Shown piece by piece: positions 33,338 to 64,000 of a DNA stretch of 64,000 bases. The stretch spans positions 868,001 through 932,000 of the forward strand of contig BROI01000002.1 of NCBI GenBank assembly GCA_027923505.1, in the 5' to 3' direction. The DNA is from Mayamaea pseudoterrestris (taxonomy: Eukaryota). Under the pieces are notes generated by a model. It made no database searches. It saw nothing but the letters and a program-made list of their open reading frames with translations, and was not told where the DNA came from. The position numbers and the translations under genes were made by a program. Position 1 is the stretch's first letter; the number at the start of each line of letters is the position of its first letter.

Positions 33338-36181
33338 TTAACGAATGCAGTCAGCGACCATTCGCGAAACATCAGCATCATCGCTTCTGACAGCAATCTT
33401 TAAAACTACTCCTCCGGCCGACTGCAGGGCAATTTGTGCTCGAGAAAGAACCTGTTGTCCAGAGACAAAGACACCGCTCAAATGCAGCATGTGCGGCTTG
33501 CCTGGAGTCGCAGCCTTGACAGTCGCCGTCCCATCGCATGGCTGCATGCCAAGAAAGTCGACAACGGCAGTGACTGCATCTTCCAATGACTTGAACTGCA
33601 GCGCGAACTTTTCCAATACTTCATTTTCATTTCCAATCGCTTCCCATGCTTTTCTAAAGTCTGGCGAGGCAATCTTGGCCATGAAGTCAGATGTTGAAAT
33701 CTCCAAATCTTCAAGCGGATACTCTTCCTCGAATGTGTTGCCTTCCTCCTCGCCAGTGGCCGGGTCAACTTGAGTCACAGTGAACCTCAACTCGCAAGTA
33801 AAGTGGCTAGGCCCAAGCTGCGCATTTTCATTGTGCTCCAGAATGGTAAAGCAATTCTTAGTCTCGCCATATTTGATAGATGGACAAGCTATCTCACCAG
33901 AGGCGCTAAACACCTCCGAATCGCTATCATCAACAAGAACAGAAACATTGTCGAGACGCTGGTTGTCAATCGTATTCTGTACCGAAAATTGGAGGACAAC
34001 ATGACTCTGGAAAATATGCTTAGTGCACGTCACCACATATTCCGTTTCCGTCTCGGTGAGATAGACAGGCAAAGACGACCGAAAGGCGCGGCCAAGCGAA
34101 GCAAGCTCCGGAATCGCGTATATGACGGAAGCCGGATCAACAGCTTCGGCTGCCTTGTCGTCAGCAGCACCATTCGCCATTTCCGCCTCCATGTCGTCAT
34201 CTCCTGATGTCTCCCGTACCAATTCCTGCACCGTATCCTCGACGATCGGCAAGGCATCAAACGTAATTGGGTCTGCATTCTGCATGGCGTCGGCAGTCGA
34301 CATGTATGCCTTCATACTGCGCTCCAACTTGTCAATCGACATAGGAAGTGACTCGAGAAAAACATAGGCAGCCGGGTCATTCTCATGCGGCTTGTCGGCC
34401 GGGATATCCTCCGCTTCCGCGTCCTCGGGCGGCGCCACGTATGGAAACTCCTCCAACGCCGCCTCCAACGTCGCAACAGCAATGGCCGCTCGATCACGCG
34501 TCTCGTCGTCCTCGTCCATCAAGCTGCGCTTCAACAGGGCCAAGATGGATTGACGCAAGCTTGGGCAGCTCGCGGCAAACTTGGTCAAGGCTGAAACGGC
34601 AGCGGCGCGAACGGCCGAGCTTTCCAAAATGACGCGATTGTAAATGAAGCGAATGTAGCGGGCCGGCGCCGTCGTGGTCGGTCCCAACTCGCCCAAGAGA
34701 TGCAAGATTTGCGTCGACAAGCTGGTAAACTCGCAGTCCTCGATGAACTCGCACAAATGCATGAGCGAGCTTTCCGTCGATTCCGGAACGGAGCGAATCA
34801 GGGAGATAATGCTGTTAACAATCGATCGCTTGAAATCAAACCCGCCTTCCTCACGCAAAAAGTTGCTGAGGAATCCTACCAAAACGCGATGTTTGGCCGG
34901 GTACGTCAAACAAAGCTTCTGCAAGCTGCGCACAACCGTAATCTTGTACTCGTCAGCAATCTCCGTCAAGAATGCCGAGATCTGCTTCAGCAAACGGTCA
35001 ATCGAGTTTTCGCTTCCCGTCTTTAAGAGAGTGGTAATGGCCAAGGTTGCAATGGAACGATTCGAGTCAGCAATCAACGCCTCCAAGTCTTCATTGCACT
35101 TGCTGACAACCCGAGGATGCGCGTTCGCAATGGCCGCCAATGTGCGAATGGCTGCGAAGCGGACCGTTGGCTTGGGCGAGCTCAAAAAGAGCTGCAAGAC
35201 GGAAATGGCCGCACCAAGATCCTGAGGTTCCGGTCGCGACAAGTTGCAAATGGCACGAGCCGCTTCGTAAACGACAAGCTCCGACTTGTGCTTCAAGGAA
35301 GCATCCAAAAAGGCATATCCAGCCACGACAACCGTGCTTGTCGCGCTCTGATAAGACCCAGAGTGACGTCCTTCCGAAGCTTCATCGTGCAAAAGCTTGG
35401 CCGCGTAACGAACCAAAAGCACCAGCGCCAACGGCGATCGCAAGCTATTATTCTGCGAAAACTGCGTCACAAGCTTGGAAACTCCAAGACGATCATGACT
35501 CTTGATCTGGTACAGGAGCTGCATGGCATGAAACTGCACCATTTCATGATGACTCCGCGTTGCCTCCTGCGTCTCGGGAATCCAGCGACGAACTACCGCC
35601 GCGCACTCTGGACTCGAAACAAACAAATGCGAGGCGGAAACAAGAGCCGACGACGAAACTTGCCCCGACGAGTCGACAATGGCTTGCTTGACGTAGCGCT
35701 CAATTGCTCCCAGCATGGCGGCATCCACAATGCGCACCAATACGCGCAGCGCGTTACCCCGATACAAGTCAACGTCGCAAGTCATATCCTTGGTCAAGCA
35801 TGATGTCACAATAATCACATCATCTGGATTACACGTTTCCGCAACATCCTTGATGAATAGATACACCATGCGGCGGAGCGACGCATCGTCACTCATGAAC
35901 AGCTTGGTGACTCCGAAAAACACTTCCGTCGCTTCATTGGAACTCAAGTACTGACCCGTATTCTGCAAGTGCAGCAGCTGCGCAATGACGGTGCAGCACT
36001 TGCGGGGGTTCTCGCGGACGGCCGTGGGGTCGTGAAAGATGCGCGCCTCCTGCAGGACCGTGGCCTTTTCCAACTGGGCGTAGGGCGACACGTAGTCAAT
36101 GTCTTCCTCCACCTTGAACTTTTCGGCTAGCTCCTGGACTTCCTTGAGCATGGAAGACATGCCGCCGTTGTCGTCAGCCAT
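33338..36181 (-). CDS. COPG: Coatomer subunit gamma
   Basis: EKATVLQEARIF, LRRMVYLFIK, FLREEGGFDFK, HLCEFIEDCEF, ETETEYVV, YPLEDLEI. Confidence 0.97.
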   Translation of the reverse strand: MADDNGGMSSMLKEVQELAEKFKVEEDIDYVSPYAQLEKATVLQEARIFHDPTAVRENPRKCCTVIAQLLHLQNTGQYLSSNEATEVFFGVTKLFMSDDASLRRMVYLFIKDVAETCNPDDVIIVTSCLTKDMTCDVDLYRGNALRVLVRIVDAAMLGAIERYVKQAIVDSSGQVSSSALVSASHLFVSSPECAAVVRRWIPETQEATRSHHEMVQFHAMQLLYQIKSHDRLGVSKLVTQFSQNNSLRSPLALVLLVRYAAKLLHDEASEGRHSGSYQSATSTVVVAGYAFLDASLKHKSELVVYEAARAICNLSRPEPQDLGAAISVLQLFLSSPKPTVRFAAIRTLAAIANAHPRVVSKCNEDLEALIADSNRSIATLAITTLLKTGSENSIDRLLKQISAFLTEIADEYKITVVRSLQKLCLTYPAKHRVLVGFLSNFLREEGGFDFKRSIVNSIISLIRSVPESTESSLMHLCEFIEDCEFTSLSTQILHLLGELGPTTTAPARYIRFIYNRVILESSAVRAAAVSALTKFAASCPSLRQSILALLKRSLMDEDDETRDRAAIAVATLEAALEEFPYVAPPEDAEAEDIPADKPHENDPAAYVFLESLPMSIDKLERSMKAYMSTADAMQNADPITFDALPIVEDTVQELVRETSGDDDMEAEMANGAADDKAAEAVDPASVIYAIPELASLGRAFRSSLPVYLTETETEYVVTCTKHIFQSHVVLQFSVQNTIDNQRLDNVSVLVDDSDSEVFSASGEIACPSIKYGETKNCFTILEHNENAQLGPSHFTCELRFTVTQVDPATGEEEGNTFEEEYPLEDLEISTSDFMAKIASPDFRKAWEAIGNENEVLEKFALQFKSLEDAVTAVVDFLGMQPCDGTATVKAATPGKPHMLHLSGVFVSGQQVLSRAQIALQSAGGVVLKIAVRSDDADVSRMVADCIR

Positions 36182-36521: not shown

Positions 36522-37376
36522 CTAAAGCAAACCTTCCATATCGGCTTTTTGCAAAACTTCGATCTGTACTCGCGTCCTGCCCAGGCATTCGTCCGAGTCA
36601 TCCAGTAGTTTGGTGACGTGCAGGCTCCCAATTTGGTGGTCGTCCGCGTACGCCATTCCATTCAAACTATCCATGACAAACTTGGCAAGGTTATCCACAT
36701 CCTTTTTGGTCAACGATAGGAGTGCGTGTGGAGCGTTTTCCTTCAGTCGACCATACCCCGGCCGATTGGCAGTAAAGTGATGCTTGGGTCGTTTCAAGTA
36801 AAAAATCATGGTCATGCGAAGCATATGGTGCGCCGCAAAGAGTGGATACGACGAGTCATTGACGTATTGGGCTGGATCGTTCGTTGCGGCACTGACAACA
36901 TGTTGTACCGTCGTTCGAAAGGACTCTTGCGCCGCTGCGGATGGATTGTACATGAAACCGCGCGAGGAGCGGTGTCGCCGGAGAGGCAAGGGGTTGCCTC
37001 GGATATCAAAGCGAATCTTGGACAGGAAGCGTGAGTTGTCTGTTGCGTTGTGCGTATAGGCAAGCAGAAATTCGTCCGTGTCGACGTTCCAGTGTAGTGG
37101 CTGCGATGGATCAACCTTGGTTCGTTTCTTTTTCGGTAAAATTGGCTCATCTACCGAGTTTAAACATTCCGTCATTGTAGCTTGTAGAGAAGTTTTACAT
37201 TTACGTTGATGTTGCTGGATTCGTTCTCGTTGCCAAGCGAATGGATGAATGTCATCGGCGCTGAATGCTTTCTTCAAATCATGATGCAGGTCGCAGCTTG
37301 AAACCCCACAGCCAAGCGAATACACTTGTGTAACGGCTACAACAAAAACAGCTGCAGAACAACATAATAGATTCAT
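36522..37376 (-). CDS. rusA: RusA-family Holliday junction resolvase with an N-terminal signal/targeting extension
   Basis: IRGNPLPLRRHR, FYLKRPK, KKDVDNLAKFVMDSLNG..YADDHQI..L...K; N-terminal MNLLCCSAAVFVVAVTQVYS. Confidence 0.85.
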   Translation of the reverse strand: MNLLCCSAAVFVVAVTQVYSLGCGVSSCDLHHDLKKAFSADDIHPFAWQRERIQQHQRKCKTSLQATMTECLNSVDEPILPKKKRTKVDPSQPLHWNVDTDEFLLAYTHNATDNSRFLSKIRFDIRGNPLPLRRHRSSRGFMYNPSAAAQESFRTTVQHVVSAATNDPAQYVNDSSYPLFAAHHMLRMTMIFYLKRPKHHFTANRPGYGRLKENAPHALLSLTKKDVDNLAKFVMDSLNGMAYADDHQIGSLHVTKLLDDSDECLGRTRVQIEVLQKADMEGLL

Positions 37377-37483
37377 GAAGGTCTCTTTTCTTGCTAGTTT
37401 TCTATTTCTACAATCCCATGGATCAAAAGGGAGGTGTTCATGCAAATTGCAAATCTCGCCTTCGACGGCCATTTTTGTCACAC

Positions 37484-37510
37484 ATCTGGTAACGGTACGA
37501 CAGTCGTAGC
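37484..37510 (+). repeat. 27-bp direct repeat, copy 2
   Basis: Exact match to 36375-36401. Confidence 0.95.
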
Positions 37511-37622
37511 GGTACCCAACTCGACGCTCGTTTCTTCCACTCGCGCACTGTACCGAAGGGAAGAAATGCGAGACGGTCACTCTACAAGCGAGAAACGCAA
37601 CAGTTCATGTCGCAATCGTTCC

Positions 37623-42892: not shown

Positions 42893-43290
42893 GACGATTG
42901 ACAATGTCGCGACAACAAGCAAAAGCGTGGTCGGTGACTACCGTATTCAAGCTTCTATGGTACTTCAAGACCGCTGCACCCTCAAATGCTTTAATTAGTA
43001 TCAGCGAGCGACGCAGAGTGTACGGTATACTGTTATGACGCAGCCGAATGTGAGCGCACAGCGCATGTGCTTGTGATATCTTTTGGTGCCAAGGCCGCGA
43101 CGTCACCAACAAGCTAAGAACCGGTACGACATAAAACAAATTTTAAGTTTCGGTACGACATACACGACATCGATGACTCTTTTGGGATGCTGCCACAACA
43201 TGAACCCATGGAACGAAGCATGATTACGGTCTTTGATCATGCAGTAGTCGCCATCTAGTCCTAGGAGTCTCTTTATAAGGCAAAAACAGC

Positions 43291-46200
43291 ATGGATCCAT
43301 TACTAGGAAGTCTTAAAAATTCAGAAGAAAACGATGAAAGCAGCAACACCTACGACGAGGAGCTCGGCAATAGTGGCGCACTCTCCAACATGAGCGACCT
43401 TCCAGCCCCGTATGGAACAAGACCAGCGCCTGTTTTGCAAGGTGCGTTGCTGCAGTCAATACTTTCTGATTTTCCAAAAACTGAAAATAGGCGGGCACGG
43501 AAAACGAATGCTACAAACGACACTGATGATGATCCTTTTGCTTCCACTCCGTCAGACCAAGTAGAAGCAGATGACCTTGACGACGGATCTGATCATGCAC
43601 AAGAACCTGTTACAACGGATCCGACAACTCCACGAGCTAGCAATAGTAAATTACCTCATATCATGTCGTTACCGCCGAGGACAAGGTCATCTGGAGCTCG
43701 CCTGATTGGTGGCGCCAGCGAACATGAGCTGCGAGGATCCTTTATTGACGCGCTTCGCCGCGAAGGCCTTGCCACAATCAACTCGGATCGGTCCTTAATA
43801 CGGCCGGATCAAGGTAGTGCAGGTAGTGTCACGGCTGATGCAAATTATGCTTCTGGAACGTATGATTCTCCAACGACAACGACGAATCTACAACATTCAG
43901 CATCCACTCCTTTGCGATCCTCGGCTGGCGCTCGACTCATCACGACGAGTACTGATATACTATCCGCAGCATCGTTACAGCGCATCGATTTTGCCAGGCA
44001 ACCAAATACTCCCGTAACAAAAAGACCCAGCTTTCTCACGTCCAAGCTCATTAGTGCCCGACTAAAAAAGAGTCGATTTGCTCATCAAGGCAAGTCGCCG
44101 TCCGACTTGAACTATGTGGAGGAGCCAAGTGAGCCAATCAAGGCTGATGCAATGCGTCGCTTCAATCCTGGTCAATTAGTTTTAGTTAATAATCAAACGC
44201 TGGGATGGATGCGACTGGTCAATGCCTACGGCTTTCCGCCCGGATCTGGTGAATCAGTGGACGAACGCAGTGGGCCTTACCAATTCGTCTTGGCAAGCGT
44301 CAAGGAGGTGCACTTTGATGAGGTGCAACCATATTATACAGTCACCATTATACATTCAGGCGTTGAGGAGCGAGCCAATGGCGAGTACATGCACTCCATT
44401 CCCACGCTGGAAGGTGAGCAAGCTGCCATTAGAGCCGCGACGGAGGAGATTGATCAGGATGAATTGAATGACGAACTGGGAGCGGCGGGTCAAGCGGATA
44501 ATGAACATGAATTGGGCATTTGTGATCATTTGGCATTTTGTATCTTGTCCGTACTGGTGCCCTTCGTTTGGACGTATGACGTTTTAATGCATGTTGGGCG
44601 CAAGCACGTGTTACCTCTTGGTCGATTCGTCCTTGAAGTGGCGCGTGCGCAGGGTACCTTGGTTTTGGACGGCAAGAAACCTTACAGATGTCCCATGCGC
44701 TTTACGATTGTGAATTTTGTCGTGCTCTGCAGTGTTTGGTTTGTGTTCATGGACATGATACGACTTGCACTTTTGCCGTCGAGTCTGGATGATGCGATTG
44801 CACAAGTTGACCTTTTTGTCTGGATTGTCTTGATGCTTGAGCTTTTATTTCAGATATTTATTCGACCAGACGGCTTTAATAATTTGATATTATCCGACAA
44901 AGCGTACAGTCCAACGACGATTCGATACATCAGCTGGTTTCACCTTTCAATTGAGTTGATTTCAATGCTGTTGTTCATTCCAGAGTTCATTTGCGTATTG
45001 CCAAATCAGTTTTCTTGCAGCCAGGCATTGCCATTCTCGCTTCATAGAGCACTGTTGCGCGGAATTATTGGGCCGACACGACTACAAGCGTTTTTCGGGC
45101 ACGCCTACATTGCACTTGTACGGCTCCGCGTTTTTGGTTTGATACGGCACTGGAGAAATATGTGGATCACGAACACATTTGTAACAATGAAGTGGGCTGG
45201 ACATCATACAGCAGGCTTGAGAGCGTTAATTCCCTTGAAGACCGGCAAGAATGCACGCGAAAAGAAGGCACTCCTCGCGAAAAAGAAATTGACAACGGAA
45301 CAGCTTGAGCAAAGAAGGAAGGACTCTGTTTTGACCAACGCATCAACTATCGGTACAGCGCTCATGGCGACGAATTCCTATCGCGCACTTGGTTTGTATT
45401 GGTTCATCTTCGGACTGTTCCCTGTCATGTATTGCATCAGCCAATCATTTATAAACCCACTTGGTTACGAGATGACGAACTTACTTGAGCAAACGAACTT
45501 AATGGCAAACGACAATGCTGCTGAGACTTGTCAATTTCTTGGTAGTTCGATTTGGGCATGGATCACCTCCGTGGCAATGCAAAGTGGCGAAAAGGGCCGC
45601 TACAAAGACCCGTATCTCATGACAATGGAGATTGCCCCAAATCGATGCTCTTTTCAAGGCGAAAACGGAACCCTCCGCCAGTACTGCAAGACAGTCCAAG
45701 ATTTGGGTATTCCACAGAGCACCTTAGCGTTGCCGAGCTGGTCCGCGGAACGTCTTGAAGTGTTTCAAACGCTTTGTCAAGCCTGGAGTAAGACTTGGGG
45801 TGCACCCGACAAATCTCCGGAAAGTATTGCCACAGCAACCAACAAGCGAATAGGTTCGATAATGCCCTACAGCTCCATAAACTCGAGCAATCTGACACTT
45901 TATGAGGTTGGAGGAATATCAACTATCGAGAATGCAAATTATTCTGTGACGGCTGTGTTCGACGCGACGCTGAGCATTGAACTTGCGTAAGTATTCTGAA
46001 TTATTGTGATGCAACCATCAACGAAAGAGAATGGCTCATTTTTGCTCTTTGTAGTGCAAGCTCTTGCTTACTGTCACAAATTTGTCTGCTGTTTGTTGTT
46101 CTTGGAGGCTTGTCAGTGCTTCGAAGAGATGCTGAGGTATTGGTTCTTGATCCCTTGCGGCGAATGTTGAAAAAGGTTGCTCAGTACGCCAAAAATCCCC

Positions 46201-47883
46201 TTGCGCAGCCACATGCCAGACATTCCATTTCTCAATCTCAATACAGTGATAGCGATACAAGTACCTCATCTGATAGCAGTGGCGATGGTGAGCGAGAGCT
46301 TGGAAGCTTCGAAACCGAACGGCTAATTACTGCTGTAAATAAAATAACGGACTTGCTTCGGAAGTGTTGGGGTGTTGCAGGCGCTGACATTATCTCCACT
46401 AATTTGGCTGCACGTGAAGGCGCCTTAGAAGTTTTCAATCCTACTGTGCCTGGGAAGAGTGTCTATGCTCTCTTTGGCTTTGCTTATATAAACGACTTTG
46501 ATCATATTTTAATGTCACTCCAAGACGATGTGATGATTCTTATCAACGACGTTGCCGCTGTACTTCACGGGGAAGTATTTCGATGGGGATTTGGTGACTC
46601 AGGTAAAGTGCTGTTGCGTTGATATTTGCTACGCGCCGGATAGATTTGTTTCTGCTCGGTCAGCTGCACTCCCTCTGCTGACGTTGTGGTTCTCTTTCAT
46701 GCTATCAGGACAATGCAACAAGAACCTTGGTGCAGCGTTTTTGATGGTATTTCGCATCGGTCTGGTCAACGAGGTAATTGAAAAGCTAGAGCAAGCAACT
46801 GATGTGATATTTAGCACTTCCAAAGGAACAACGACACAAGGGGCGGCAGCCAATCGTTCACATCGTTCACACCAACGAATATGCTCCCAAGTTAACAGCA
46901 ATCGAAACTCTCAAGAGTCAAACCGATCCGTTGGTTCCAGCGGTCGCGATGACATGTCCACCGGCTCCTCGCATATGCGCACGAAGCGCACTCGTGCACT
47001 CAAGAAGAAGAGAGAAATCGATCCAAAGACACTTTCGCTTCAGTCGCTGCCTGGTATTAGCACATTTACCGACCGGGCGGTCATTGGTATGCTAAAGGCT
47101 TTTGCCGGCGTACATCGTGACAACAAGATTCGTAACTGGAACAATGATTTTCGTCTGAGCGCAGGTGTCGGAGCGTTCGAGGTGAGCATGATATTCGGCA
47201 TGGATGCAGGCTGGGCCGTCGAAGGTGCCGTCGGTAGCGAATATAAGATTGACGCGACCTATCTCAGTCCGCATGTTAACATGGCGAGTCGCATGATGAT
47301 GGCTAGCAAGCAGTATGGTGTTAAAATCATGCTCAGTCAGTCGGTGCAGGAGCTCATGAGCGATGTTGCCAATACCAAGTTACGCCACTTGGATACAGTC
47401 ACAGTCAAGGGGTCGTCCGTGAAGCAGCGAATTTATACGTACGATGCTCGAGCCCAAGGGGTTGATTTCTTCTTGTTTAGTCGGACGGATGAGCAGGCTG
47501 ATTACGATGCGGAAAAATACACTCCTCGTATTTGGGACACGGATCAAGACTTGCTATCCATGCGGCAGCATGTTTCCGAACACTTCCTTACCGTGTACAA
47601 TAGAGGTCACAAGGCGTACATTCAAGGCGACTGGGAGAAGGCTCTTCCATTGCTGGAACGAGCCAACGAAATCATGGTTGAAACAGCGCTGGAGGAAGGC
47701 TATCTAGAGGACCAATTTGAGGCTTTGGAGATGCAATCTGGAGACGACGCCAAGGCAGCCGAGGAGGAGCTCAAGCGCATGAATGGCGACGGTCCTAGTC
47801 TGTATCTTGTAGCATTCATTAAGTCGTTCGGCGGCAAGGCGCCCGACGATTGGGAGGGTTGGCATCCGCTGACTCGCAAATAG
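43291..47883 (+). CDS. Ion-channel-like TM domain fused to a class III nucleotidyl cyclase (ciliate/apicomplexan ACalpha type); introns 45987-46054 and 46603-46708
   Basis: TM block with S4-like VRLRVFGLIRHWR; GVAGADII, PGKSVYALFGF, NKNLG, GWAVEGAVGSEYKIDATYLSPHVNMASR, TVKGS; TPR-like C-terminus GDWEKA...DGPS...APDDWEGW. Confidence 0.88.
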
Positions 47884-48073: not shown

Positions 48074-48643
48074 TTACAAATCATCATCCTCAGAAGGATC
48101 AGGCTGCGCAGTAGGAGCTGAATTATCGTTGCTTGACGCGGTCGGGTTTGATCCAAACTCCCAATCCTGTCGACAGATTGGACAAGAATTCTTGGATGTC
48201 GTTTGACTTAACCACTTGCCGACACACTGCAAGTGAAAGGCATGCTTGCATTTACCGTAGACGACGGGGCAGTCGTCGCCCGGATACTTGATTCCAGGAG
48301 CTGTCGATTCGTAGGCGTTTTGACAAATGGAGCAAACGTCGCCCGGATCACCAGCGTTCCAAGTCCACTGCGCGACAGCTGTAAAACGTTATAAATAAAC
48401 AAATCAGACATTTGCGTAATGAGAAATATAAGGAATAAAAGATAGAGAGTAGGAGAAGACCAAAGCCTTCATGAAAGGGGTACTTTCGAATTGGTGTTTG
48501 CACGCATGCGATGTCAATTCTCTCACTCTATTTCGACATGACTATTCTTCTCGTCAAAACGCACCATGAAACCTCTTGACGCGCACCACGAGACGTCGCT
48601 GCGGCTGTTGCTCCGTCAACTGTGTCGTCGGTTGACTCGCCAT
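48074..48643 (-). CDS. APC11: Anaphase-promoting complex subunit 11 (RING-H2); exons 48643-48565 and 48378-48074
   Basis: Spliced product VRVKRFHAVAQWTW..DVCSICQNAYE...PGDDCPVVYGKCKHAFHLQCVGKWL...CPICRQDW; not present intact in the ORF track. Confidence 0.9.
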
Positions 48644-49105
48644 GTAACGATTGCCGCTTGCTGGCTGCTGCTGCTGATTGATTGTTTGTAGTGGCGCTGA
48701 ATGGTGCACAACGGTCTCTCTGGTCGCCCGTTTGCGGCTCGATGACATAAGCAATGGCTACAAACGACTTTTGAAAAACGTCACTGATGGTTGAAGATGC
48801 TGGAAAGATGGATTGTTGCGCTGCGAAACGTTTCAGGCCGCCATGATGGACGTGGGAAACGTTTGGGAGCGCCATTTTGCGCTCGGCGACGCCTCGGACC
48901 ATTCATGTCGTAACGGCAATACGTTATTGTCGCAGTTGAATCGCTGCGGTACTAAAGTAATGATCGGCAGCATCTCCCATGGATTCGAGCAGACGCCAAT
49001 TGAATGAAATAGCTGCAAGGGATCAAATAACACGGGGATCTGCGTCTCTTGCATGGATTTTTGCTGCTCTGGAGTTTTTACAGACGAGTCAAAGTTTTGG
49101 TTAAC

Positions 49106-50749
49106 ATGACCACGAGAAATAACCATCATGTCGACGACAATCTCGTCTCGGCCATGGAAGGCATATCCATGGAACGAAGCACAAGTTTTCGCTACGAGGA
49201 GCTTGGTCCTCCTTCGTCACCACTAGCTTTTGATGCTCCAATACTAGAGCGCGGACGTCGAGACCAAGTTTTGTGCTACATTCCAGCGACTGGCTCGCAT
49301 CAAGTATTCAAAAATGTACTCTTTCGCAATCCGCATCCACTCCACAAGCTCAAACAGGCCTACTGGCCCGTTCCGGAAAAGAGTACCATCAAAACAATCA
49401 TGGGCCACGTTGAAATCTGCTTGATACTAGAACGTTGCATAAGACAGAGAGAGGATGACGAATCATTTGATGACGACTCCGAAAACGACGACGACGACGA
49501 TGAAGAAATTGTATTTGAACTAACTGATCGAATGGTTGCCGTCAAGGTCAATTACATTGAACGCATTGAACGGCTCAAAACCAAGCACGCCGAAGACCCC
49601 ATGAAGGAAATATCCGCCATGCAGCTTGCCGGAAACAATCATCCAAACGTACTTGGACTAGTGGAAGTCTTGTTTGACGGTCGCAACGTGAATTGCGTGT
49701 TGCGATACTGCGACTCGGGCGATTTGTTCCAGCTGCTGCAGGAGAGTCAACCGTCCAAGGCGCCGCAGCAGCAGCAGCAGCAACAACCAGGACAGCCGGA
49801 ACCAGTGGCCCGCTACTGGTTTCGGCAGCTTGTCGAGGGAGTCAAGTATATACACTCGCGGGGTATGTGCATGTTGCGCTGGCTGCTAGGAGTTAGCAGG
49901 TTGCAGGTTTTGTCATCTGATTTTAGGCTTTATTTCTTACTAATCGCGTCTTTCGTCTTTTTAGGCATTTGCCATCGCGATTTGTCTCCGGAAAATGTCA
50001 TGATTGACAAGGACGGCTGCTTGATCATTGACTTTGGCATGTGTTTGCGCATGCCGTATTTAGAAAATGATCACGCCGCAGCAACGATGACGGACGTAAC
50101 GAGAGGGACGCGGCGCTGCTTGATGAAGCCGCAAGGAGCATGCGGAAAGCTGCCGTACATGAGGTGAGTCGGTGATTGTGGGCAGCAGTCTCCTATACAT
50201 GCAGCGGCTTCTAATCGCTCCTTGCATTAATTATGCTTCGCGTACTGACACCCGAAACGAACATGTATGCAGTCCAGAAATTTTCAAGAATCGTGAGCCG
50301 TTCGACGGAGAGCTCGTCGATGTTTGGACCCTTGGGACAATTTTATTCTGTATGCTAACAGGAAATCGCTCATACCAACAGGTAAGCAACATTTGCTCCA
50401 TCTCAACGCAGTAGCCTGCGTTGACACAGATCAACTAATGTCTCAATCTTGCTATAGCCACATCCGTCAGATGCTCAATTTTATTGGATGACTCATGGAT
50501 TGCCTCAGCTTCTGGCCGACTGGTCGGTCAGTCTGAGCTCCGACGGGGTAGATTTGCTTCAGCAGCTACTGCAAATCAACCCGAGATTAAGAATAAATCT
50601 TGCAGGCATTGAGCGACATCCGTAAGTGGAATATGTCTTTCGGTCACTCGTTGTAACAGGTCGACGACTCAGATATCATTCTTTGTCTATACTTTTCTGG
50701 CAGATGGATGATGCTCCCTGATGAAAGACCGACTCAAATCGTCGTATGA
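49106..50749 (+). CDS. Ser/Thr protein kinase (CAMK-like); introns 49863-49964, 50164-50272, 50382-50457, 50622-50703
   Basis: VAVK, EDPMKEISAMQ, HRDLSPEN, DFG, CGKLPYMSPE, DVWTLG, HPW. Confidence 0.9.
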
Positions 50750-50902: not shown

Positions 50903-52138
50903 CTATGACAACATGCCCAACGATGAAGTAATGGCAAGTATGGATGCGATACCTGAAATGAGTGCAGCAAACTTCTTCCATTTGTGCTCTTGGTCTTCCC
51001 ATTCCTCCGGTATTACTTCAGTTGCACCGACGTAGATGAATGTTCCCGCAACAAGTGCAAGCATAATCGAGTCGACAGCAGGTGCGGCAAACTCATTCAC
51101 CGCCATGCCCAAACCAACACCAATAGGCCCCATGCACGAAAATATTGAAAGGTATTGCATAATCTCACTCTCCTTCATTCCAGACTTGAGAAAAGCCACC
51201 AACAAGGCAATCGACTCCGCTGGTTGATGCAATGCTATACTTAACGTGAGCAGCGCGCAATCCTCAAACGAATCAGCCAGGCCCAAGGCCATCATTTCAA
51301 GCACGCTATGCACTGCCAATGCTCCAAGGAGAATGACAGCGCTACGTCCACTCGTGCTTTCCGCTCTCGCAACCTCCGACGGCGTCCGTTGGTGGTTGCT
51401 GTTGCCTATTACTGCTCCTGGCTTGCGTGAGCCGTTGGCAACCGGATGAGCATGTCCATGTTTACTGCCACCATGCTCCAGCTCATGCAACGCCCCGTGA
51501 GCATCAAAGGCAACCTTTTCCACAAAAAAGATTAACAAGTAACCAGCGAGTACCAGCAAATATGGCGTCACTTCCGGAAAAACGTTCTTGTCCAGCCCGT
51601 GGACACACTCTGGAATCAAATGACCAAAGGCTAGCGACAAGAAGACGCCTCCCGAAAACGCATTGGCAAGTCCAAGGGCTACCTTGTTCTCCGTCATTTT
51701 ACGAGACTTTAATGGAACTAACCAAAAGAAGACGTTGATCGCAGTCAAAAGGGCTTGAAAAATAACCTTCCATAGATGCAAGGGAATGCCATAGGGAGGC
51801 TGCTTTGCAGAAACTAGACTCTGCGCATGACTATGCCCACCTCGAGGAATCTTGTCAACGCAGCTGGAGCAGCAGTCGCATTTGGATGGTGCTTCTCGCC
51901 AATATGGTTGCGACACGGATGATGCGAGCAGAATCGCACGAGCCTTGGAGAAATGAGGACTACTGGTGGTGCTCGGGCAGTTCTGCTGTAACGATTGCTG
52001 CTGCCTGTGAGGTTTCTTGTGAAAAAGCTTATTCTTCTTCCAAGCTGAAACTGCTTCTGAAACTGATACAGTCTCTGTTAAAATGACGAGAATGAGCGTC
52101 AAGAGGCCCTTGGTGTGTCGAGCGGATAACGGTAGCAT
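50903..52138 (-). CDS. ZIP-family (Zrt/Irt-like) metal transporter with an N-terminal signal/extension
   Basis: NAFSGGVFL...HLIPE, His-rich loop, HSVLE..ALG, LHQPAE, AGTFIYV. Confidence 0.92.
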   Translation of the reverse strand: MLPLSARHTKGLLTLILVILTETVSVSEAVSAWKKNKLFHKKPHRQQQSLQQNCPSTTSSPHFSKARAILLASSVSQPYWREAPSKCDCCSSCVDKIPRGGHSHAQSLVSAKQPPYGIPLHLWKVIFQALLTAINVFFWLVPLKSRKMTENKVALGLANAFSGGVFLSLAFGHLIPECVHGLDKNVFPEVTPYLLVLAGYLLIFFVEKVAFDAHGALHELEHGGSKHGHAHPVANGSRKPGAVIGNSNHQRTPSEVARAESTSGRSAVILLGALAVHSVLEMMALGLADSFEDCALLTLSIALHQPAESIALLVAFLKSGMKESEIMQYLSIFSCMGPIGVGLGMAVNEFAAPAVDSIMLALVAGTFIYVGATEVIPEEWEDQEHKWKKFAALISGIASILAITSSLGMLS

Positions 52139-52457: not shown

Positions 52458-53687
52458 TTACTTGTCGACTCTTAGCGTAGGGCCAAGCATCGACAAGAAC
52501 TTTCGTCGCGCGGTGGCCAGCGCCTGCACCTGCGACTCTGCCACGCGTAACGCGGCACCATCACTTGGCACAAACAGCAAGACTGGTTCCTCCAGTGGCT
52601 CGGGAATGAGCCCCTGCACCATCAGCCTTCGATGTGCAAACGACGCAGTAGTGTCATGCTGCTGCTGCTGCGATTGCAACCAAGCATGCTCCATGACGTT
52701 TCGACTCGACAGGCGCTTGCGTGGATCCAAAGTGACAAGCTGTTCCAGCAGCTCGACCAAGTGGTCACTCTCTGTTGCTCGTGGCAATATACTTGCCATG
52801 CCTTTGGGCGGAACCGCTTCGAAACGAAGCTTGGTGTAATCTGGAGTAATTGCTGCAACATCTGGCCACGAGTCGATTGTTGGAGTTCCTAGCGCGCGAA
52901 AGATAAGGGTTAATTGATCCAGCACGCTGCGGCCCGGAAACAAGGGTCGTCCCAGTAGCAGCTCGCATACTACCAAGCCAGCCGAGTAAACATCGACAGA
53001 GGCGTCGGTGGGTGCACATCCAAGCAGCATTTCTGGTGGGCGATAGTGCAATGTACAAAGGCCTCGAGGTATTGTCGAATAGCTTGATGTTGCGTCTTGA
53101 TTATTCAAAGCAGCCGCAGCAATAGAAGTAGTGAATTGTGAGAGTCCAAAGTCGCAAATTTGCACGTGGCCGGTCGGTGTCACGAGCAAATTGGCCGGGG
53201 TCACGTCGAGATGCAAAACGTCGTGAGAATGCAAGTGATCGAGACCTGCAAACAAGTCTCGCGCAATGCTTTTAATGACAGGCATGGAAATTAATGGAAG
53301 AAACGATTTTCGTCGCCATTGCATGGTGAATGCAAGGTCCGTCGGACAGTAGTCAAACGCCAGCGACAAGGACGGCCCGCTGGAATACATGGCGCGAAGA
53401 GTCACGACATGGTCATGCGAACCCAACTTCCGAAGCGCCGCAACTTCGTTCGCAACATCTGGACTATACTCTTGGTGGTTGGTGGATTGAAACAAGGCTT
53501 TGACGGCAACGACGCGAACCTCGGAGGCATGATGAATGATTGCCAATGATATTTCTCCAAAGGCGCCGCTCGCCATGCGCGAATTGGGGACTGTTATAAC
53601 GTGTTCCGAGCCAAAATAATCCATCCCAATAGATGAAGAGGATGTTGCTTTATGAGTTACATGGTTGGTCTCGCTATTTTCACTCAT
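52458..53687 (-). CDS. Divergent CDK-like Ser/Thr kinase
   Basis: ASGAFGEI, VAVK, HLDVTPANLL, DFG, TLHYRPPEMLLG, PLFPGRSVLDQL..I...LGTP...WP. Confidence 0.85.
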   Translation of the reverse strand: MSENSETNHVTHKATSSSSIGMDYFGSEHVITVPNSRMASGAFGEISLAIIHHASEVRVVAVKALFQSTNHQEYSPDVANEVAALRKLGSHDHVVTLRAMYSSGPSLSLAFDYCPTDLAFTMQWRRKSFLPLISMPVIKSIARDLFAGLDHLHSHDVLHLDVTPANLLVTPTGHVQICDFGLSQFTTSIAAAALNNQDATSSYSTIPRGLCTLHYRPPEMLLGCAPTDASVDVYSAGLVVCELLLGRPLFPGRSVLDQLTLIFRALGTPTIDSWPDVAAITPDYTKLRFEAVPPKGMASILPRATESDHLVELLEQLVTLDPRKRLSSRNVMEHAWLQSQQQQHDTTASFAHRRLMVQGLIPEPLEEPVLLFVPSDGAALRVAESQVQALATARRKFLSMLGPTLRVDK

Positions 53688-53974
53688 AATGACGGAATAA
53701 ACAAGGATGGTCGCCCATCATGCGTTTCAATGTGATGGAACAAAACATTCATTCATTTTTGTGTCGTATGGTTACTCCTACCACGGTACTCAATTTTCAG
53801 CGATGCAGTACCGATACGACGCTCATTCCTACGTCACTCGCAGATTACGTCACACAACACACAATCGGCGCTTGTTGATGTTTGTTCGACAGCAGGCCAT
53901 CATACAGCCTCCAAGAAGGCCTCCCCCGTCGTCCAAAAGGAAGAACAACATCAGAACCATCAACCTTTGTTGCC

Positions 53975-56020
53975 ATGAGATTCAGCATTGCCGTGCTTGC
54001 GCTGCAACTGCTGCCGGCGTCGCAAGCCTTCACGAATAGTCTTCGACACGCTCGCACCTCCACAGCAAAGAACAAGTTGCATTCGACGGAAGACGACGAT
54101 GACTACTTTGACCCGTACTTGGACAAGGCTCTCCGCACCGACGTCTTTCAGCTCTACAGTCCACCAGGAGGAGGGGCAAGAACCAATGGCATCGTGGCGC
54201 CGTCGGCAGCAAAGAAGGAGCGGCTGCATCAAAAGTCTCCTCCCGCCGTTGTGTTTTACGACAGCAAGCGACGCAAATTCATGCAGGGCTTTAAAAGCAG
54301 CGTACAAACGGTCCGAGATATTTCCAAAAAGACCATTTCAACAGTCAGCAAAGCTTCCATACAGGCTCCCGAGGTTGTCACGTCGCAACTAGAGTCCATC
54401 GTGACCAACGCCAGAACACTGGCGCCATTCCAAAAAGTGCAACGTTTACAAATTCCGCAACTGAGCCACCAGCAGAACGAATATTTCGGCGCCACGGCGG
54501 CTGGCTTTTGCACGTCGCTGACGCTTGCTCCGGAAGCAGTAGCCTTTGCAGTCATGACTGGCGTCAATCCATTGGTGGCACTGTGGACGAGCGTCATTGT
54601 AGGCATGACGGCGTCTTTATTAGGTGGTCGGCCTGGTTTGATTTCAGGTACCAGCGGCGCCTGCGCCATGGTGTGCGCTGGATTATGCGCACAAAAGGGA
54701 CCGCAATACTTGACAGCATGTGCGCTTCTAGCAGGCGTTTTTCAAATTGCTGGCGGAGTGCTGGGTGTGGGAAAGTTTATTCGTCTGGTTCCCCAACCAG
54801 TCATGCTTGGTTTTGTGAATGGTTTGGCTTTACTCATGGCCAAGACGCAACTGATTCACTTTGCCGGCTTGTCGCCGCTGTCGGCACCTGGTGTTTCAGC
54901 CATTGGAATATCTGCCGCAACCATTGGTCTCGTCAAGCTGCTACCCAAGTTTAGCAAAGTGATACCGCCGTCGTTGGGGGCTGTGACGCTGGTATCCATC
55001 GTATCAGCTATATTCAAATTGCCAGTCAAACGACTTGCGGATGTGGCGGGAGCAGGCACGTTTGCTGGTGGTTGGCAGGCGTTACCAAAAATTGGCTTGC
55101 CAAGCGTGCCTCTAAATTTAGCAACTGTACAAACGGTCTTGCCGTATGCCATCATTATAGCTGTCGTTGGCTTGCTGGAGAGCCTTCTCACCACGCAAGT
55201 GGTTGATGGCATGCTTGATGATGGAAAACGCGGCTCGACTGAAAAGGAATGCATTGCACAGGGAGCTGCCAACGTTGCCAGCGGCTTGTTCGGTGGTATG
55301 GCAGGCGGTGTTCAGCTTGGCCAGTCAATACTCAACGTCCAATCTGGCGGCGCCATCAACAAATGGTCAGGCATAAGCGCCGGAATCTTTCTAGCTGGGA
55401 GCATCGTCTTGGGAGCGCCATTGGTGGGAGCCATTCCTGTTGCAAGTTTAGCAGGAGTCATGCTATTGGTGTGTCAATCAACATTCTCATGGTCGTCGCT
55501 GCGAGTAGTGAACAAAATTCCAAAAATTGACGCTTGTATACTGGCCATGACCAGCATTCTCACACTTCAAAAAAATCTTGCGGCTGCCGTTCTGTACGGG
55601 ACAATGGCGTCGGCGCTGGGCTTTGCATGGAGGAAAAGCAAAATGCTACGAGCAGACGAATACGTGTTTGAAGATAACAACGTAAAGCTCTATTCGCTAA
55701 AAGGTCCACTGTTCTTTGGATCAGCGGGTGCTTTCGACTCAATTTTCGACGTTGGTGGCGACCCAGAAAAGGTGATTATGGACTTTAGCGAATGCAGAGT
55801 GCACGATCATTCCGCATTAGATGCGGTTTGCAGCATGGCAGAAAAATATAGCCGGTCGGGCAAGCAAGTCATTGTCCGCCGAGTGAGCAGTGATACTGCT
55901 CAGTTGCTTCGAAAACTGGACAGAAGTGGCTCATTGATTGTTGAGACTGATGCAACCAATGATCCGCAATATCAAGTAGCGGAAAATAGTGAATTGTACG
56001 AGAATCTGCGAATCGGGTAA
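53975..56020 (+). CDS. SulP/SLC26 anion (bicarbonate/sulfate) transporter with STAS domain, probably plastid-targeted
   Basis: PEAVAFA, GGRPGLISG, PVMLGFVNGLA, ESLLT, QG.AN, GPLFFGS, D.SAL; presequence MRFSIAVLALQLLPASQA-F. Confidence 0.92.
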   Translation: MRFSIAVLALQLLPASQAFTNSLRHARTSTAKNKLHSTEDDDDYFDPYLDKALRTDVFQLYSPPGGGARTNGIVAPSAAKKERLHQKSPPAVVFYDSKRRKFMQGFKSSVQTVRDISKKTISTVSKASIQAPEVVTSQLESIVTNARTLAPFQKVQRLQIPQLSHQQNEYFGATAAGFCTSLTLAPEAVAFAVMTGVNPLVALWTSVIVGMTASLLGGRPGLISGTSGACAMVCAGLCAQKGPQYLTACALLAGVFQIAGGVLGVGKFIRLVPQPVMLGFVNGLALLMAKTQLIHFAGLSPLSAPGVSAIGISAATIGLVKLLPKFSKVIPPSLGAVTLVSIVSAIFKLPVKRLADVAGAGTFAGGWQALPKIGLPSVPLNLATVQTVLPYAIIIAVVGLLESLLTTQVVDGMLDDGKRGSTEKECIAQGAANVASGLFGGMAGGVQLGQSILNVQSGGAINKWSGISAGIFLAGSIVLGAPLVGAIPVASLAGVMLLVCQSTFSWSSLRVVNKIPKIDACILAMTSILTLQKNLAAAVLYGTMASALGFAWRKSKMLRADEYVFEDNNVKLYSLKGPLFFGSAGAFDSIFDVGGDPEKVIMDFSECRVHDHSALDAVCSMAEKYSRSGKQVIVRRVSSDTAQLLRKLDRSGSLIVETDATNDPQYQVAENSELYENLRIG

Positions 56021-60355: not shown

Positions 60356-63300
60356 ATGTCGTTTCCACCACCGCCGCCTCCGCCGGCGAATTCTAGTCGG
60401 TTTGCTCCACCGCCACCGGGAGGTTCGTTTGCGGCACCTCAACCTGCCGCAGGCCTGGCGCAAAACATGAGCAACCTTTCCATTCAGCCGCCAGCGGCTC
60501 CGTCTGGGTACGTACAATCAAACAAATGTAAAGAAGAAGACGAATAGCGAGATTATGGTAGTGAAAGTAATCGAGCATGAAGAATGCAAAAAATATATAT
60601 TTTGACATTCATGCATTTGCAACTTGCATTGCCAAGAGACTGCAATGACTGCTGACATCTCACCTTTTTTGTTTAATTATTTTCACTACAATTTCAGAGC
60701 ACCAACTGGAGCCGGCATGTTTCGTCCTCCGCCTCCAGGTCAGCCAGTCGCTCCAAGACAGCCGCAATATCAGGGCGGCGCCGCTGCTCCGCCCCATCAA
60801 CCTGGACCCGCCGTCTTCACGCCAGCCGCTCCAAAGGGACCTCCAGCAATAGCTGGCGGCTCCTTTGCTCCTCCTCCACCTCCTGGCGCTCCCATGATGC
60901 CTCCAGGATCATCGCATCAAATGCAAATGCATGCGCCGCCGCAGCAATTTGGCGGTTTGAATCCTGCTGCAGCCGCGCCGTCACCATTTTACCATCCCCA
61001 GCCTACTCCTGGTCAAATGAACCGCGCCATGGGTCCACCGGGAATGGGATCTCCGCCGCCAGCAGCCGGAGGCATGCCGGTTGGTTTACCGAGTGCAGCG
61101 CCCATGACGATTACAGAAAATACAAACATTGACTACAGCATCAAGATTCCTGAACCTTTCTTTCGCCTAGCCTGCGGAAAGCTTCCTCAGACTGCGTCGC
61201 AGGCACCCAAGATTCCGCTCGGTGGCTTGATTCGTCCATTGGCGCCAATCTTGGATGAGTCTGACGACTCACTCAAGGTGGACACGATCCAGCCTGGCAC
61301 GGCTGGCATTGTCCGCTGCAAGCGCTGCCGCACTTACATGAACGCCTTTGTGACGTGGGGCGACCACGGCCGGACCTGGAAGTGCAACATTTGTACGCAA
61401 ATCAACGAAACACCGAGCGCGTACTTTTGTCATTTGGACGACCAAACGGGTCTTCGTCGGGATCGCTACGACCGACCGGAACTGAGCAAGGCGCTCGTGG
61501 AGTTTATTGCGCCGGCCGAGTACATGGTGCGGCCGCCGCAGGAGCCCGCGTACTTTTTTGTCATTGACGTGAGTGCGACGGCTGTACGCAGTGGCATGCT
61601 GGCGAGTGTGGCGGCTGGTATCAAGGCGAGTTTGGATCATTTGCCGGGACGGGGGCGCACCAAGATTGGTTTCGTCACGTTTGATAATTCGGTGCATTAC
61701 TATAACCTGGCGAGCGATTTGACGAATCCACAAGTATTAGTGGTTGCGGATTTGAAGGAACTATTTGTGCCGCTGCCGGATCACTTGTTGGTCAATTTGG
61801 AGGAATCTCGATCGGTTGTGGAAGTGTTTTTGGATAGCCTGCCGGAGATGTTTAGTCGCAACCCCGTCGTGTCGCAGTCTTGCCTTGGACCGGCACTCAA
61901 GGCGGCATTTACCGTCATGAAGCAAGTTGGTGGTAAAATGTGCGTCTTTCAGTCGCTCATGCCAAACTTGGGAGATGGTGCGCTGAAGCCACGAGAGCAA
62001 CCTGGAATTATGGGTACGCCCGCGGAAATCAAATTGCTCAAGCCGGAGCAAACATGGTTCAAAGATACAGCTGTTGAGTTTAGTCGTCAGCAAATTAGCG
62101 TCGACATGTTTTTGTTCCCTTACCAGTACATGGACTTGGCATCGCTTGGAGAGCTCCCTCGTTATACTTCGGGCAATCTTTACTCGTACGTTTCATTTAA
62201 CAGAGCCAAGGATGGAAAACGATTTGAAGATCAGCTTGCGAATACCTTGACGCAGCATACAGCCTTTGAAGCAGTCATGAGGATTCGTTGCAGCAAGGGA
62301 ATGAGAATTACAAATTTTTACGGTAACTTCTTTATTAGAGGGACAGATCTCCTTGCGCTCCCCAACTGCAACACTGATTCAGTCTTTGGATTTGACTTGG
62401 CCCACGAGGAACAAAACATTTTAATGTCCCACGTCACGGTGCAAGCAGCTCTGCTTTACACGAGCAGTGATGGAGAGCGGCGTATTCGAGTCATGACGCA
62501 GACGCTTCCAGTGACACCGTTGAACTCGGAGCTTATTGGAGCAATTGATGCAGAAGCGTCTTGTGCCTTGCTTGCACGGCAAGCAATGGACTTGGGGTTG
62601 AAAACGAGCTTGGACCAGACCCGCATGCGTTTGCAGCAAATTTGCGTGGATGTCATCCGGTCTGCTAAAGGCGGAGACAAGCGGACGGTGTCTGGTTATG
62701 CTGCTCCGGGGCATCATGACGGATCGGATGGCGAGGAGAAGCAGTTGCCTGAAAACTTGCAACTCTTCCCGCTGTATATCCTAGCGCTGATGAAGAATGT
62801 TGCTTTTCGAGGAGGTACGGACGTTCATCCGGACGAACGCATTCAGGCCCACCATATATTGAGCCGCCTGTGGGTTCCAGCGTGCAAGCACTTTATTTAT
62901 CCGCAATTGTTTGAGCTGCACAAAATGGACAATGATGCTGGCCATCCATCTGTTAACGACGACGAGAGTGAACTGGTTGCTGGAAGAAACCGCATTGTAC
63001 TACCCACTGTGGTTAATTTGAGTATAGACCGACTGAGCAGCGATGGTGTTTACTTGCTCAGCAACGGAATTGAATTCTATCTCTGGGTCGGCCGAGATGC
63101 AAACATGAATATTGTGGCGTCGCTTTTCGGTGTTCACACTTTGGATGATGTTGATCCAAATCAAATGGAAATTATTATGAGCGGCGATCCATTCGCGTCA
63201 CGCTTTGGAGCCATTGTTGATGCATTGCGCGAAGAGGTTGATGGCCCTTATTACACTGCGCCAAAGATTGTCGTCATTCGAGAAGGAGATACTCACTTGG

Positions 63301-64000
63301 AGGCACGGTTTTACTGGTTTTTGATTGAAGATCGGGCAAGTTTTCAAGGTGGAACCTACAGCTACGCCGAGTTTATGCAGTTTGTAAACAATCCAAATGC
63401 CACCTCGGGAGGCCGGGGCGTCGCCCCTCCTGGTGCACCCGGTGGAATGGCGATGGGTGCTCATCCTCCTCCACCAGGTCCTCCTGCCCCGCATCAAGGA
63501 GGTGCGTATCCGCCTCAAAAGCCGCAGTACGCTCCCTCACCTGGTCATGGAAACTACGCTCCACCGACACCTCCAGTTGCGCCGCGCGGACCTCAGCCAG
63601 GTGGTTATGGAGGGCCGCCTGCTCCCCCGCAGCCTTCTCAGCAAATTAGTTACAACTCACCGCCGGTGGCATCACACGCGCCATCTCAAGGAGGATACGG
63701 TGGCCCAATGGGATCACACGGCCCTCCGTCAGGTGGCTATGGCGCTCCTCCAACGCCGCCAACTCAAGCAGGACCTCCACAGGTGAACTATGCAGCGAAA
63801 ACTTCACCAGTCGGAGCTCCACCTCAGGCGGCGTACCAAAGCCCTCCTGTGTCTTCTGCCGGACCTTCACGACAAGCTGGCCCTCCTCCTGTACCGGGAC
63901 GGTCAGTAGCTTCTAGCGCTCCTCAACAAGCTCCGGCTTACTCATCCACGCCTCCGCCTCCTCCAGGTGCCGGCGTTGCACGACCTCCTCCGCCACCTCC
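60356..64000 (+). CDS. SEC24: COPII coat subunit Sec24, truncated by the window end; intron 60508-60697
   Basis: Pro-rich N-terminus, zinc finger RCKRCRTYMN..WKCNIC, EFIAPAEYMVRPPQ, FVIDVS, FEAVMRIRCSKG, GERRIRV, gelsolin-like segment; absent from the ORF track because there is no stop in the window. Confidence 0.95.

Follow-up and report, generated by a model that had tools for sequence, protein, structure and literature searches.

Cyclases of the ACalpha type, in which a voltage sensor is fused to a cyclase, are known from ciliates and apicomplexans, where the way in which the membrane module is coupled to the cyclase is unresolved. Weber et al. 2004 are said to have identified the active ACalpha form as a homodimer. 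The ACalpha of Plasmodium possesses all of the canonical residues and has demonstrated activity, according to PMC5746546. Stramenopiles have related 'bimodal' voltage-sensor/cyclase proteins, with PPTG_13136 as well as PPTG_13761 of Phytophthora parasitica and the ochrophyte short forms among them, which belong to the same family; according to PMC12223298 (2025), the Phytophthora proteins combine a voltage-sensor domain with a Guanylate_cyc domain, show no pore-helix homology and are of a kind found in stramenopiles and alveolates only, and a supplementary table gives one diatom homologue, PHATR_46904. Here, we describe a gene of the raphid pennate diatom Mayamaea pseudoterrestris, located at 43291-47883 (+) of a 64,000-nucleotide stretch of contig BROI01000002.1 (positions 868,001 to 932,000; the window hereafter), whose product is a member of this family in which both metal-binding aspartates are replaced, by Tyr and by Ala, whilst the residues that contact the purine and the transition state are kept. 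Its NCBI counterpart, 'hypothetical protein MPSEU_000143800' (P0002; 1434 residues), is 100% identical over the part that was queried, and residues are numbered accordingly.

The order of the parts is that of the alveolate ACalpha proteins (Paramecium, Tetrahymena, Plasmodium), namely S1-S6 with an S4-type helix, a class IIIb-like cyclase homology domain (CHD) with an insert, and a TPR-like tail. A query with exon 3 matched proteins of Stentor, Eimeria and Blepharisma at about 1e-33 to 1e-36, and the motifs NKNxG and K[IV]DA[ST]YLSPxVN are shared. Judged by this homology, the motifs, the domain order and the tree given below, the Mayamaea protein is related to alveolate ACalpha by common descent. 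It differs in that its S4 is degraded, a Tudor-like domain has been added at the N-terminus, NKN is preceded by an insert of 4 residues and the S5-S6 loop is much larger, and it reads Y/A at the two metal sites where the alveolate proteins read D/D. The consensus that a preliminary description of this DNA had given for the latter proved accurate, in that the Stentor, Blepharisma and Eimeria ('adenylyl cyclase, putative') proteins carry FGFCDIRxF and NKNIGDAFL. The stramenopile short forms (800-1000 residues) have a clean S4 and, at the first and second metal sites, Asp and Asn respectively, and the Mayamaea long form differs from them in all of these respects. The family is already known, as alveolate ACalpha and stramenopile voltage-sensor/cyclase proteins; what we did not find in print is a description of the Asp-less, Tudor-bearing long clade of diatoms and bolidophytes, on which figures in the supplement of PMC12223298 might bear. 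The accessible part of that paper holds no discussion of catalytic residues or of an Asp-less diatom clade, and no residue analysis of PHATR_46904.

The catalytic domain and its key residues lie as follows, the conversion of residue numbers to coordinates, here and below, having been made by hand arithmetic, with no script.

46311-47445 (+): class III (IIIb-like) CHD, P0002 residues 947-1289, placed by PF00211, the match of a profile to bPAC and the family alignment over the N-terminal half
46485-46487 (+): Tyr codon TAT at the first metal-Asp position (Y1005), from alignments to bPAC and to the family
46720-46734 (+): K-N-L-G-A, with the substrate Lys K1048 at 46720-46722 and A1052, in the second metal-Asp position, at 46732-46734
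47257-47292 (+): purine-position T1227 (47257-47259) and transition-state N1234 (47278-47280) and R1238 (47290-47292), invariant in alignment A1 and matched to bPAC KMDHT...VNVAAR

The class III nucleotidyl cyclase profile PF00211 matches the exon-3 translation at 47179-47442 with 25.2 bits against a cut-off of 21.9, over profile positions 99-179 of 183 only, and matches P0002 with 22.6 bits; intron 2 and a low-complexity insert, some 75-100 residues long, interrupt the domain. Its best sequence matches in the PDB are the photoactivated adenylyl cyclases bPAC and OaPAC, with which it has the spacing KxDxT...N..AR in common. Unlike the Mayamaea protein, bPAC has both metal Asp, is an active homodimer, and bears a BLUF sensor and no membrane part.

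Both FGFAYINDF and NKNLGAAFL are present in the predicted protein, and mapping to bPAC through the short forms, together with the family alignments, confirms that their Tyr and Ala stand at the metal-Asp positions. A 25-member family profile matches bPAC with an E value of 2.8e-10, aligning KIDATYLSPHVNMASRM with KMDHTLLGDAVNVAARL of bPAC, and its Tyr column falls on the Asp of bPAC FFSDILAF. The alignment of one short form, P0159, to bPAC spans the whole N-terminal half of the domain and places the Asp of FGFCDI on the first metal Asp and NKNLGN on KFIGD, so that the Lys residues coincide and Asn falls on the second metal Asp. In the family alignments, Tyr1005 and Ala1052 of P0002 fill both metal columns, and no variation is seen at K1048, T1227, N1234 or R1238. 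Of the six canonical catalytic residues, two are therefore absent and the other four are kept, which is the C2-like split that had been proposed from the motifs, and the transition-state Asn and Arg are indeed those named at the time. The proposed adenine-specifying pair needs amendment, however: the Lys of NKN stands, but the Asp of KID is not its companion, since it is the Thr of KIDAT, aligned with the counterpart Thr in bPAC KMDHT, that occupies the purine-specifying position 7 residues ahead of the Asn. Class IIIb cyclases bear Thr or Ser at this position, and a Lys/Thr pair indicates adenine. Guanylyl specificity was considered for this domain and rejected, as the Lys/Thr pair argues against it.

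Two nearby acidic residues, the Asp of NDF and that of GDS, were weighed as substitute metal ligands and rejected, neither being conserved among the homologues. The NDF position varies (G/D/E/K/N/Q/Y), with Gly in most cases, and the short forms are without GDSG, a variable insert of 4 residues, so the loss of the metal site survives this check. With both metal Asp gone, the homodimer has no canonical two-metal site. Class III cyclases use two-metal-ion catalysis, and we infer from the residues that neither the Mayamaea homodimer nor a dimer with its detected paralogue, P0102, could perform it, so that the protein probably makes no cAMP by itself. The earlier claim of inactivity as a homodimer is thereby sustained as regards the site; the lack of cAMP synthesis would be its likely consequence.

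We gathered about 400 family members in three protein searches and one exhaustive representative search; the latter gave 3526 matches at E <= 1e-3, of which 150 were fetched, and one of the protein searches contributed the best 120 of its 284 matches. An alignment-based residue table covers the 180 sequences with a readable NKxxG motif. Reading the first and second metal sites in turn, 21 of these are D/D and 46 are D/N, a handful have a single acidic residue or Glu (E/A, E/N, E/K, G/D, D/E), and the remaining 105 or so have neither Asp nor Glu at either site. The named D/D proteins are from alveolates, and the named D/N proteins are from stramenopiles (Chlorochromonas, centric diatoms, Triparma, an ochromonad). 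The proteins without Asp correspond to the long forms (1200-1650 residues), which come from diatoms and bolidophytes and are marked by a 4-residue insert before GQCNK. Not one of the 104 long-form homologues sampled has Asp at either metal site: the first position reads A in 60, G in 24, T in 6, V in 3, Q, S and E in 2 each, Y and K in 1 each, and is unread in 3, and the second reads A in 38, G in 23, S in 19, P in 14, N in 7, Q in 2 and E in 1. K[IV]DAT...N.A[SA]R is kept in 91/91 long forms that include the C-terminal half, the 13 others being without that region. Orthologues with the same defect are also found in transcriptome-derived MMETSP/EukProt records (Amphiprora, Aulacoseira and others). 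Conservation of the substitutions in orthologues had been named as a check on the preliminary description, and the loss of both Asp, though not the replacing residue, is shared by the long forms sampled.

A tree was made from 60 rows spanning the cyclase domain to the C-terminus, using a quick IQ-TREE search with support from the Shimodaira-Hasegawa-like approximate likelihood ratio test (SH-aLRT) and with alveolates as the outgroup; P0407, P0099 and P0124 were omitted, the motif pattern having missed their domain. The stramenopile proteins form one clade (SH-aLRT 99), inside which all long forms form another (SH-aLRT 100, stem length 1.53), with the 'bimodal' proteins as its nearest outgroup. 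A Triparma long form, which reads E/A at the metal sites, falls within the long clade, and the pennate diatoms have two paralogue lines, a and b.

Pennate clade a: MPSEU_000143800, Epithemia_6040, Amphiprora, Seminavis, Nitzschia a
Pennate clade b: Mayamaea MPSEU_000137800, Epithemia_5853, Fistulifera, Nitzschia b, Pseudo-nitzschia, Cylindrotheca

According to this tree, a single loss of the metal site would have preceded the divergence of diatoms from bolidophytes, the genes having been kept since. Diatoms are major primary producers, and both they and their sister group carry an old, strongly conserved branch of the ACalpha family without the catalytic metal site. The loss of that site (a single loss, per the quick tree) with the nucleotide half-site fixed may be regarded as a natural experiment that sets nucleotide binding in a class III cyclase apart from catalysis. 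Caution is called for as well, in that such genes should not be counted as adenylyl cyclases when cAMP signalling in diatoms is annotated, and the question arises of whether their products are partner subunits or nucleotide sensors.

An Asp-bearing paralogue had been proposed as the partner of the protein, and none was found for Mayamaea among the matches listed. The only other family member found in this diatom, in a census that rests on protein databases, is P0102 (MPSEU_000137800), which shares the 2.78-Mb contig with this gene at a distance of about 60 locus tags and reads A/G at the metal sites, and the 64-kb window contains no second cyclase. A short-form profile (A2), built from 12 Asp-bearing short forms, gave 215 matches, the best 120 of which were listed, to 449 bits and 29% identity. 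The named rows among these 120 are from the centric diatoms Thalassiosira exigua, Cyclostephanos, Thalassiosira sp., Cyclotella cryptica, Minutocellus, Leptocylindrus and Proboscia, from three Triparma, from an ochromonad and from Hondaea, and they include no Asp-bearing short form from Mayamaea or any named pennate. Seminavis, Nitzschia, Fistulifera, Epithemia and Pseudo-nitzschia have no short form in the same 120, though all of them supplied long forms.

With slightly less than even confidence, we favour the view that the protein is a conserved pseudo-cyclase, inactive alone, in which a metal-free pocket would bind nucleotide for regulation or sensing. The CHD dimer would keep a purine-nucleotide pocket without metal, probably for ATP, and the S6 helix would couple this regulatory or sensing element to the modules in the membrane and outside the cell, whilst the TPR-like and Tudor-like parts would be free to bind partners. 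We favour it because the half-site is strictly kept in the pennates though no Asp-bearing family member is listed there. Several points weigh against this view. The transition-state Asn and Arg are strictly conserved, as would be expected of a working C2-like half-site, and a pure binding pocket should have less need of this. The absence of a partner rests on the best 120 of 215 and the best 120 of 284 matches and on the completeness of the NCBI annotation; some 35 D/N short-form sequences that bear no taxon label could come from pennates, and, among the class III cyclases of the diatom, the negative covers the ACalpha-like family only. The tree came from a quick search with long-branch warnings, and the exact sister group is unsure. 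Finally, the nucleotide binding, dimerisation and inactivity of the CHD are inferences.

The principal alternative is that the protein is a C2-like half-enzyme, that is, a subunit of a heteromeric cyclase in which the Lys/Thr/Asn/Arg half-site is completed by an Asp-bearing partner, and this we regard as possible but doubtful. As partner one would expect a D/N voltage-sensor cyclase of the short form, if such is present, or some other class III cyclase, and the assembly would have one active and one degenerate regulatory site, as in mammalian C1/C2; a dominant-negative or modulatory subunit is a version of the same idea. The residue split is exactly C2-like, given that mammalian C2 and the Mayamaea CHD are both without the metal Asp pair and both with the purine-binding Lys and the transition-state Asn and Arg, the latter two kept in every one of the 91 long forms. 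The roles of these residues in C2 are reportedly those assigned by Tesmer et al. Cyclotella cryptica (P0107, P0159) and Thalassiosira sp. AJA248-18 (P0082, P0340) each have a long form together with an Asp-bearing short form, and the genus Triparma has both. A C2-type domain is inactive alone and supplies the base-binding half of a shared site, and complementation across subunits is known logic of heterodimeric class III cyclases, according to PMC8815786. There are, however, differences. The C2 domain of mammalian membrane adenylyl cyclases has its C1 partner in the same polypeptide, with 2 x 6 transmembrane helices, whereas the Mayamaea CHD has no partner among the matches listed, Thr at the purine position and a membrane module that resembles a voltage sensor. 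The short forms keep their own K/T/N/R, so they are independent of the long form, and they themselves have Asn at the second metal site (the 46 D/N sequences of the 180 tabulated). Together with the Asp-less state of the detected paralogue and the lack of an Asp-bearing family member for Mayamaea or any named pennate among those best 120 matches, this tells against a half-enzyme. The notion of an obligate heterodimer half, advanced in the preliminary description, is thus left as a possibility to which the residue split lends support and which the search for a partner among the listed family matches does not.

A broader statement, which takes in elements of both accounts and which we offer tentatively as less likely than not, is that the diatom and bolidophyte long forms in general would be signalling proteins of a new kind, pseudo-cyclases coupled to a voltage sensor and an ectodomain that sense ATP or another nucleotide, with the pocket doubling as a C2-like half where Asp-bearing short subunits exist. 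If this is the case, then one molecule may read membrane potential or an extracellular ligand together with nucleotide state, without synthesising cAMP.

It seems improbable that the homodimer is an unorthodox cyclase that makes cAMP through other metal ligands (backbone carbonyls, water, the triphosphate or a non-canonical acidic residue, for example). Conservation is strong over the remainder of the pocket, and Asn at the second site is already tolerated, and widespread, among the stramenopile short forms; yet no conserved acidic residue is found at or beside either metal position in the 104 long forms, and both positions vary freely (A/G/T/V/S/Y and A/G/S/P/N) in a way that looks like relaxed constraint. 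Mutating the metal Asp is reported to abolish activity in the class III cyclases that have been studied. There is likewise little chance, in our estimation, that the CHD is a structural relic that serves solely as a dimerisation scaffold for the membrane and extracellular modules, its pocket residues being kept for folding. All class III CHDs dimerise, to our knowledge, and function could reside in other modules that the long forms have gained, namely the Tudor-like barrel and the enlarged extracellular loop, but the Lys, Thr, Asn and Arg of the surface pocket are invariant in 91/91 whilst the adjoining metal positions drift, and folding alone would hardly explain this. A decaying or mis-assembled gene has a negligible probability and is excluded for practical purposes by clade-wide conservation and spliced contigs, given that the 1472-codon frame is intact, the contigs of three public runs skip the introns exactly, codons agree between runs and more than 100 homologues are conserved likewise. 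Nothing was found in its favour, the one fault noted in the NCBI model being an N-terminal intron without support.

The gene itself has three exons. An ATG at 43291 opens an 898-codon frame, which two GT..AG introns join to the further exons up to a stop codon at 47881-47883.

43291-45986 (+): exon 1, coding for the disordered N-terminus, Tudor-like domain and S1-S5 and for the greater part of the extracellular domain; GT at 45987, and the contigs of runs X2-X4 join 45986 to 46055
45987-46054 (+): intron 1, 68 nt, GT..AG, skipped in one contig each of X2, X3 and X4 and kept in the X1 contig
46055-46602 (+): exon 2, flanked by both introns
46603-46708 (+): intron 2, 106 nt, GT..AG, splitting the cyclase domain just before QCNKNLG and skipped in the X2, X3 and X4 contigs (joint 46598/46705, cut +4)
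46709-47883 (+): exon 3, ending at the stop
43441-43554 (+): stretch of 114 nt removed as an intron in the NCBI model, coding for residues 51-88 of the open reading frame (ORF), 38 residues

Four public runs of one study (X1-X4) contain the locus, X1 as an unspliced 4.5-kb contig and X2, X3 and X4 each with one contig that omits exactly both introns. We read X2-X4 as derived from RNA, and take the gene to be expressed, solely because these contigs skip both GT..AG introns and the X1 contig does not. Record 9 of X2, record 12 of X3 and record 14 of X4 are continuous across 43441-43554, so the full protein is likely of 1472 residues and the deposited one, at 1434, is probably 38 too short. No run has a variant at the Tyr or the Ala codon, where the DNA-like run and the spliced contigs agree. 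At window positions 43239-43401, X1 and X2 each have two alternative 163-nt contigs, with 6 and 7 differences from the window, a pattern suggestive of two alleles at the gene's 5' end, and some 40 more single-base differences are spread over the gene across the runs.

The membrane module is made up of the following parts.

44701-45168 (+): voltage-sensor-like four-helix domain S1-S4, P0002 residues 433-588, placed by hand from the short-form alignment and the AlphaFold2 (AF2) model
45091-45168 (+): S4 helix, with R573, R575, R581 and R584
45379-45438 (+): S5 transmembrane helix, P0002 residues 659-678, a hydrophobic stretch conserved in all groups and lying in model helix 257-290
45439-46055 (+): extracellular domain between S5 and S6, about 185 residues, with conserved Cys and N-x-S/T sites and with intron 1 near its end
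46056-46121 (+): S6, continuing into a conserved cytosolic helix at 46128-46202 (LVLxPLxRMLKIVxxYAxNPL)

An AlphaFold model of P0002 residues 390-930 (541 residues; predicted local distance difference test (pLDDT) score 84.7, predicted TM-score (pTM) 0.79) gives, in order, a four-helix bundle, S5, a folded alpha/beta extracellular domain with conserved Cys (helices at model residues 297-423, strands at 430-464) and S6, which forms with its cytosolic extension a single 53-residue helix (466-518). The S4 of the short forms is a clean RxxRxxRxxRxxK, and that of the long forms has R573, R575 (invariant family-wide), R581 and R584, with one register position lost. Pfam Ion_trans does not match the Mayamaea protein, and on the short-form relatives it matches over the S1-S4 part of the Pfam model only. 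In VIA-align, model residues 43-204 match the voltage sensors of KvAP, Shaker, Kv1.3, Kv4.3 and Kv3.1 at Z 6.2-7.4, a range that is indecisive for helical bundles, and all Z values were <= 8.5 with G-protein-coupled receptors and helical bundles mixed in. Foldseek gave no match to the 541-residue model at E <= 0.001; its weak rows (E 0.09-1.4) included K+ and cyclic-nucleotide-gated channels with TM-scores of about 0.1-0.15. A PDB profile search reached Kv1.2/Kv1.3 with alignment A1 at no better than E 0.33-0.4, and matched no channel with the short-form profile A2. Taken together with the short-form alignment, these data support, as a lead, a voltage-sensor-like fold for S1-S4 with a weakened S4. 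The label of a channel, and with it that of a voltage- or ion-coupled channel, is not supported, as neither a K+ selectivity-filter motif nor a pore helix is visible in the S5-S6 alignment or any pore signature in the model, and the folded Cys-rich extracellular domain takes up that place instead.

Two further domains flank these parts.

44137-44460 (+): small cytosolic N-terminal beta-barrel, Tudor/SH3-like, about 100 residues, conserved in 32 aligned long forms
47533-47880 (+): C-terminal TPR-like tail, with sub-threshold TPR matches, conserved to the C-terminus in all groups

The AF2 model of the barrel has a pLDDT of 89.8, and its best Foldseek matches in the PDB are Tudor domains, with E values from 8e-3 to 0.1 and target-normalised TM-scores up to 0.84. 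ESM Atlas scores for this domain were <= 0.85 and serve as leads only, and a Tudor-like identity is likewise a lead rather than firm. The aligned short forms start downstream of it. In the tail, TPR_2 and TPR_1 match at 47596-47670 with E values of 0.015 and 0.023, below the cut-off, and the short-form profile weakly touches the TPR chaperone PcrH (E 0.79).

Degenerate metal sites are also seen in other short-form stramenopile lineages whose S4 is intact, with the pairs His/Asn, Met/Gly, Asn/Asp and Tyr/Asp, and exchange or loss of the metal ligands seems to have happened repeatedly in the wider family.

H/N short forms: P0345, P0352, P0355, P0358, P0360, P0390
M/G short forms: P0380, P0385, P0389, P0394, P0398, P0243
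N/D short forms: P0395, P0396, P0406
Y/D short form: P0399

Between P0343 and P0392 there is also a tight D/N short-form subgroup of about 35 sequences of 470-580 residues, all of which end 60-75 residues past the NKN motif; these are probably prokaryote-style gene calls on eukaryotic contigs, cut at an intron. Nearly all family members have a precomputed match to Pfam PF26726, of which local Pfam scans gave none.

The neighbours of the gene in the window (coatomer gamma, APC11 RING-H2, the ZIP and SulP/STAS transporters and Sec24) are ordinary housekeeping genes, and none of them suggests a functional cluster with it. A RusA-family ORF and two protein-kinase ORFs are also present.

33338-36181 (-): coatomer gamma
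36522-37580 (-): ORF of the RusA Holliday-junction endonuclease family (PF05866, E 6e-12), lying in this diatom nuclear window between the coatomer-gamma gene and a DnaJ gene
48074-48388 (-): APC11 RING-H2
49049-50167 (+): protein-kinase ORF
50903-52138 (-): ZIP transporter
52458-53687 (-): protein-kinase ORF
53882-56020 (+): SulP/STAS transporter
60624-63998 (+): Sec24

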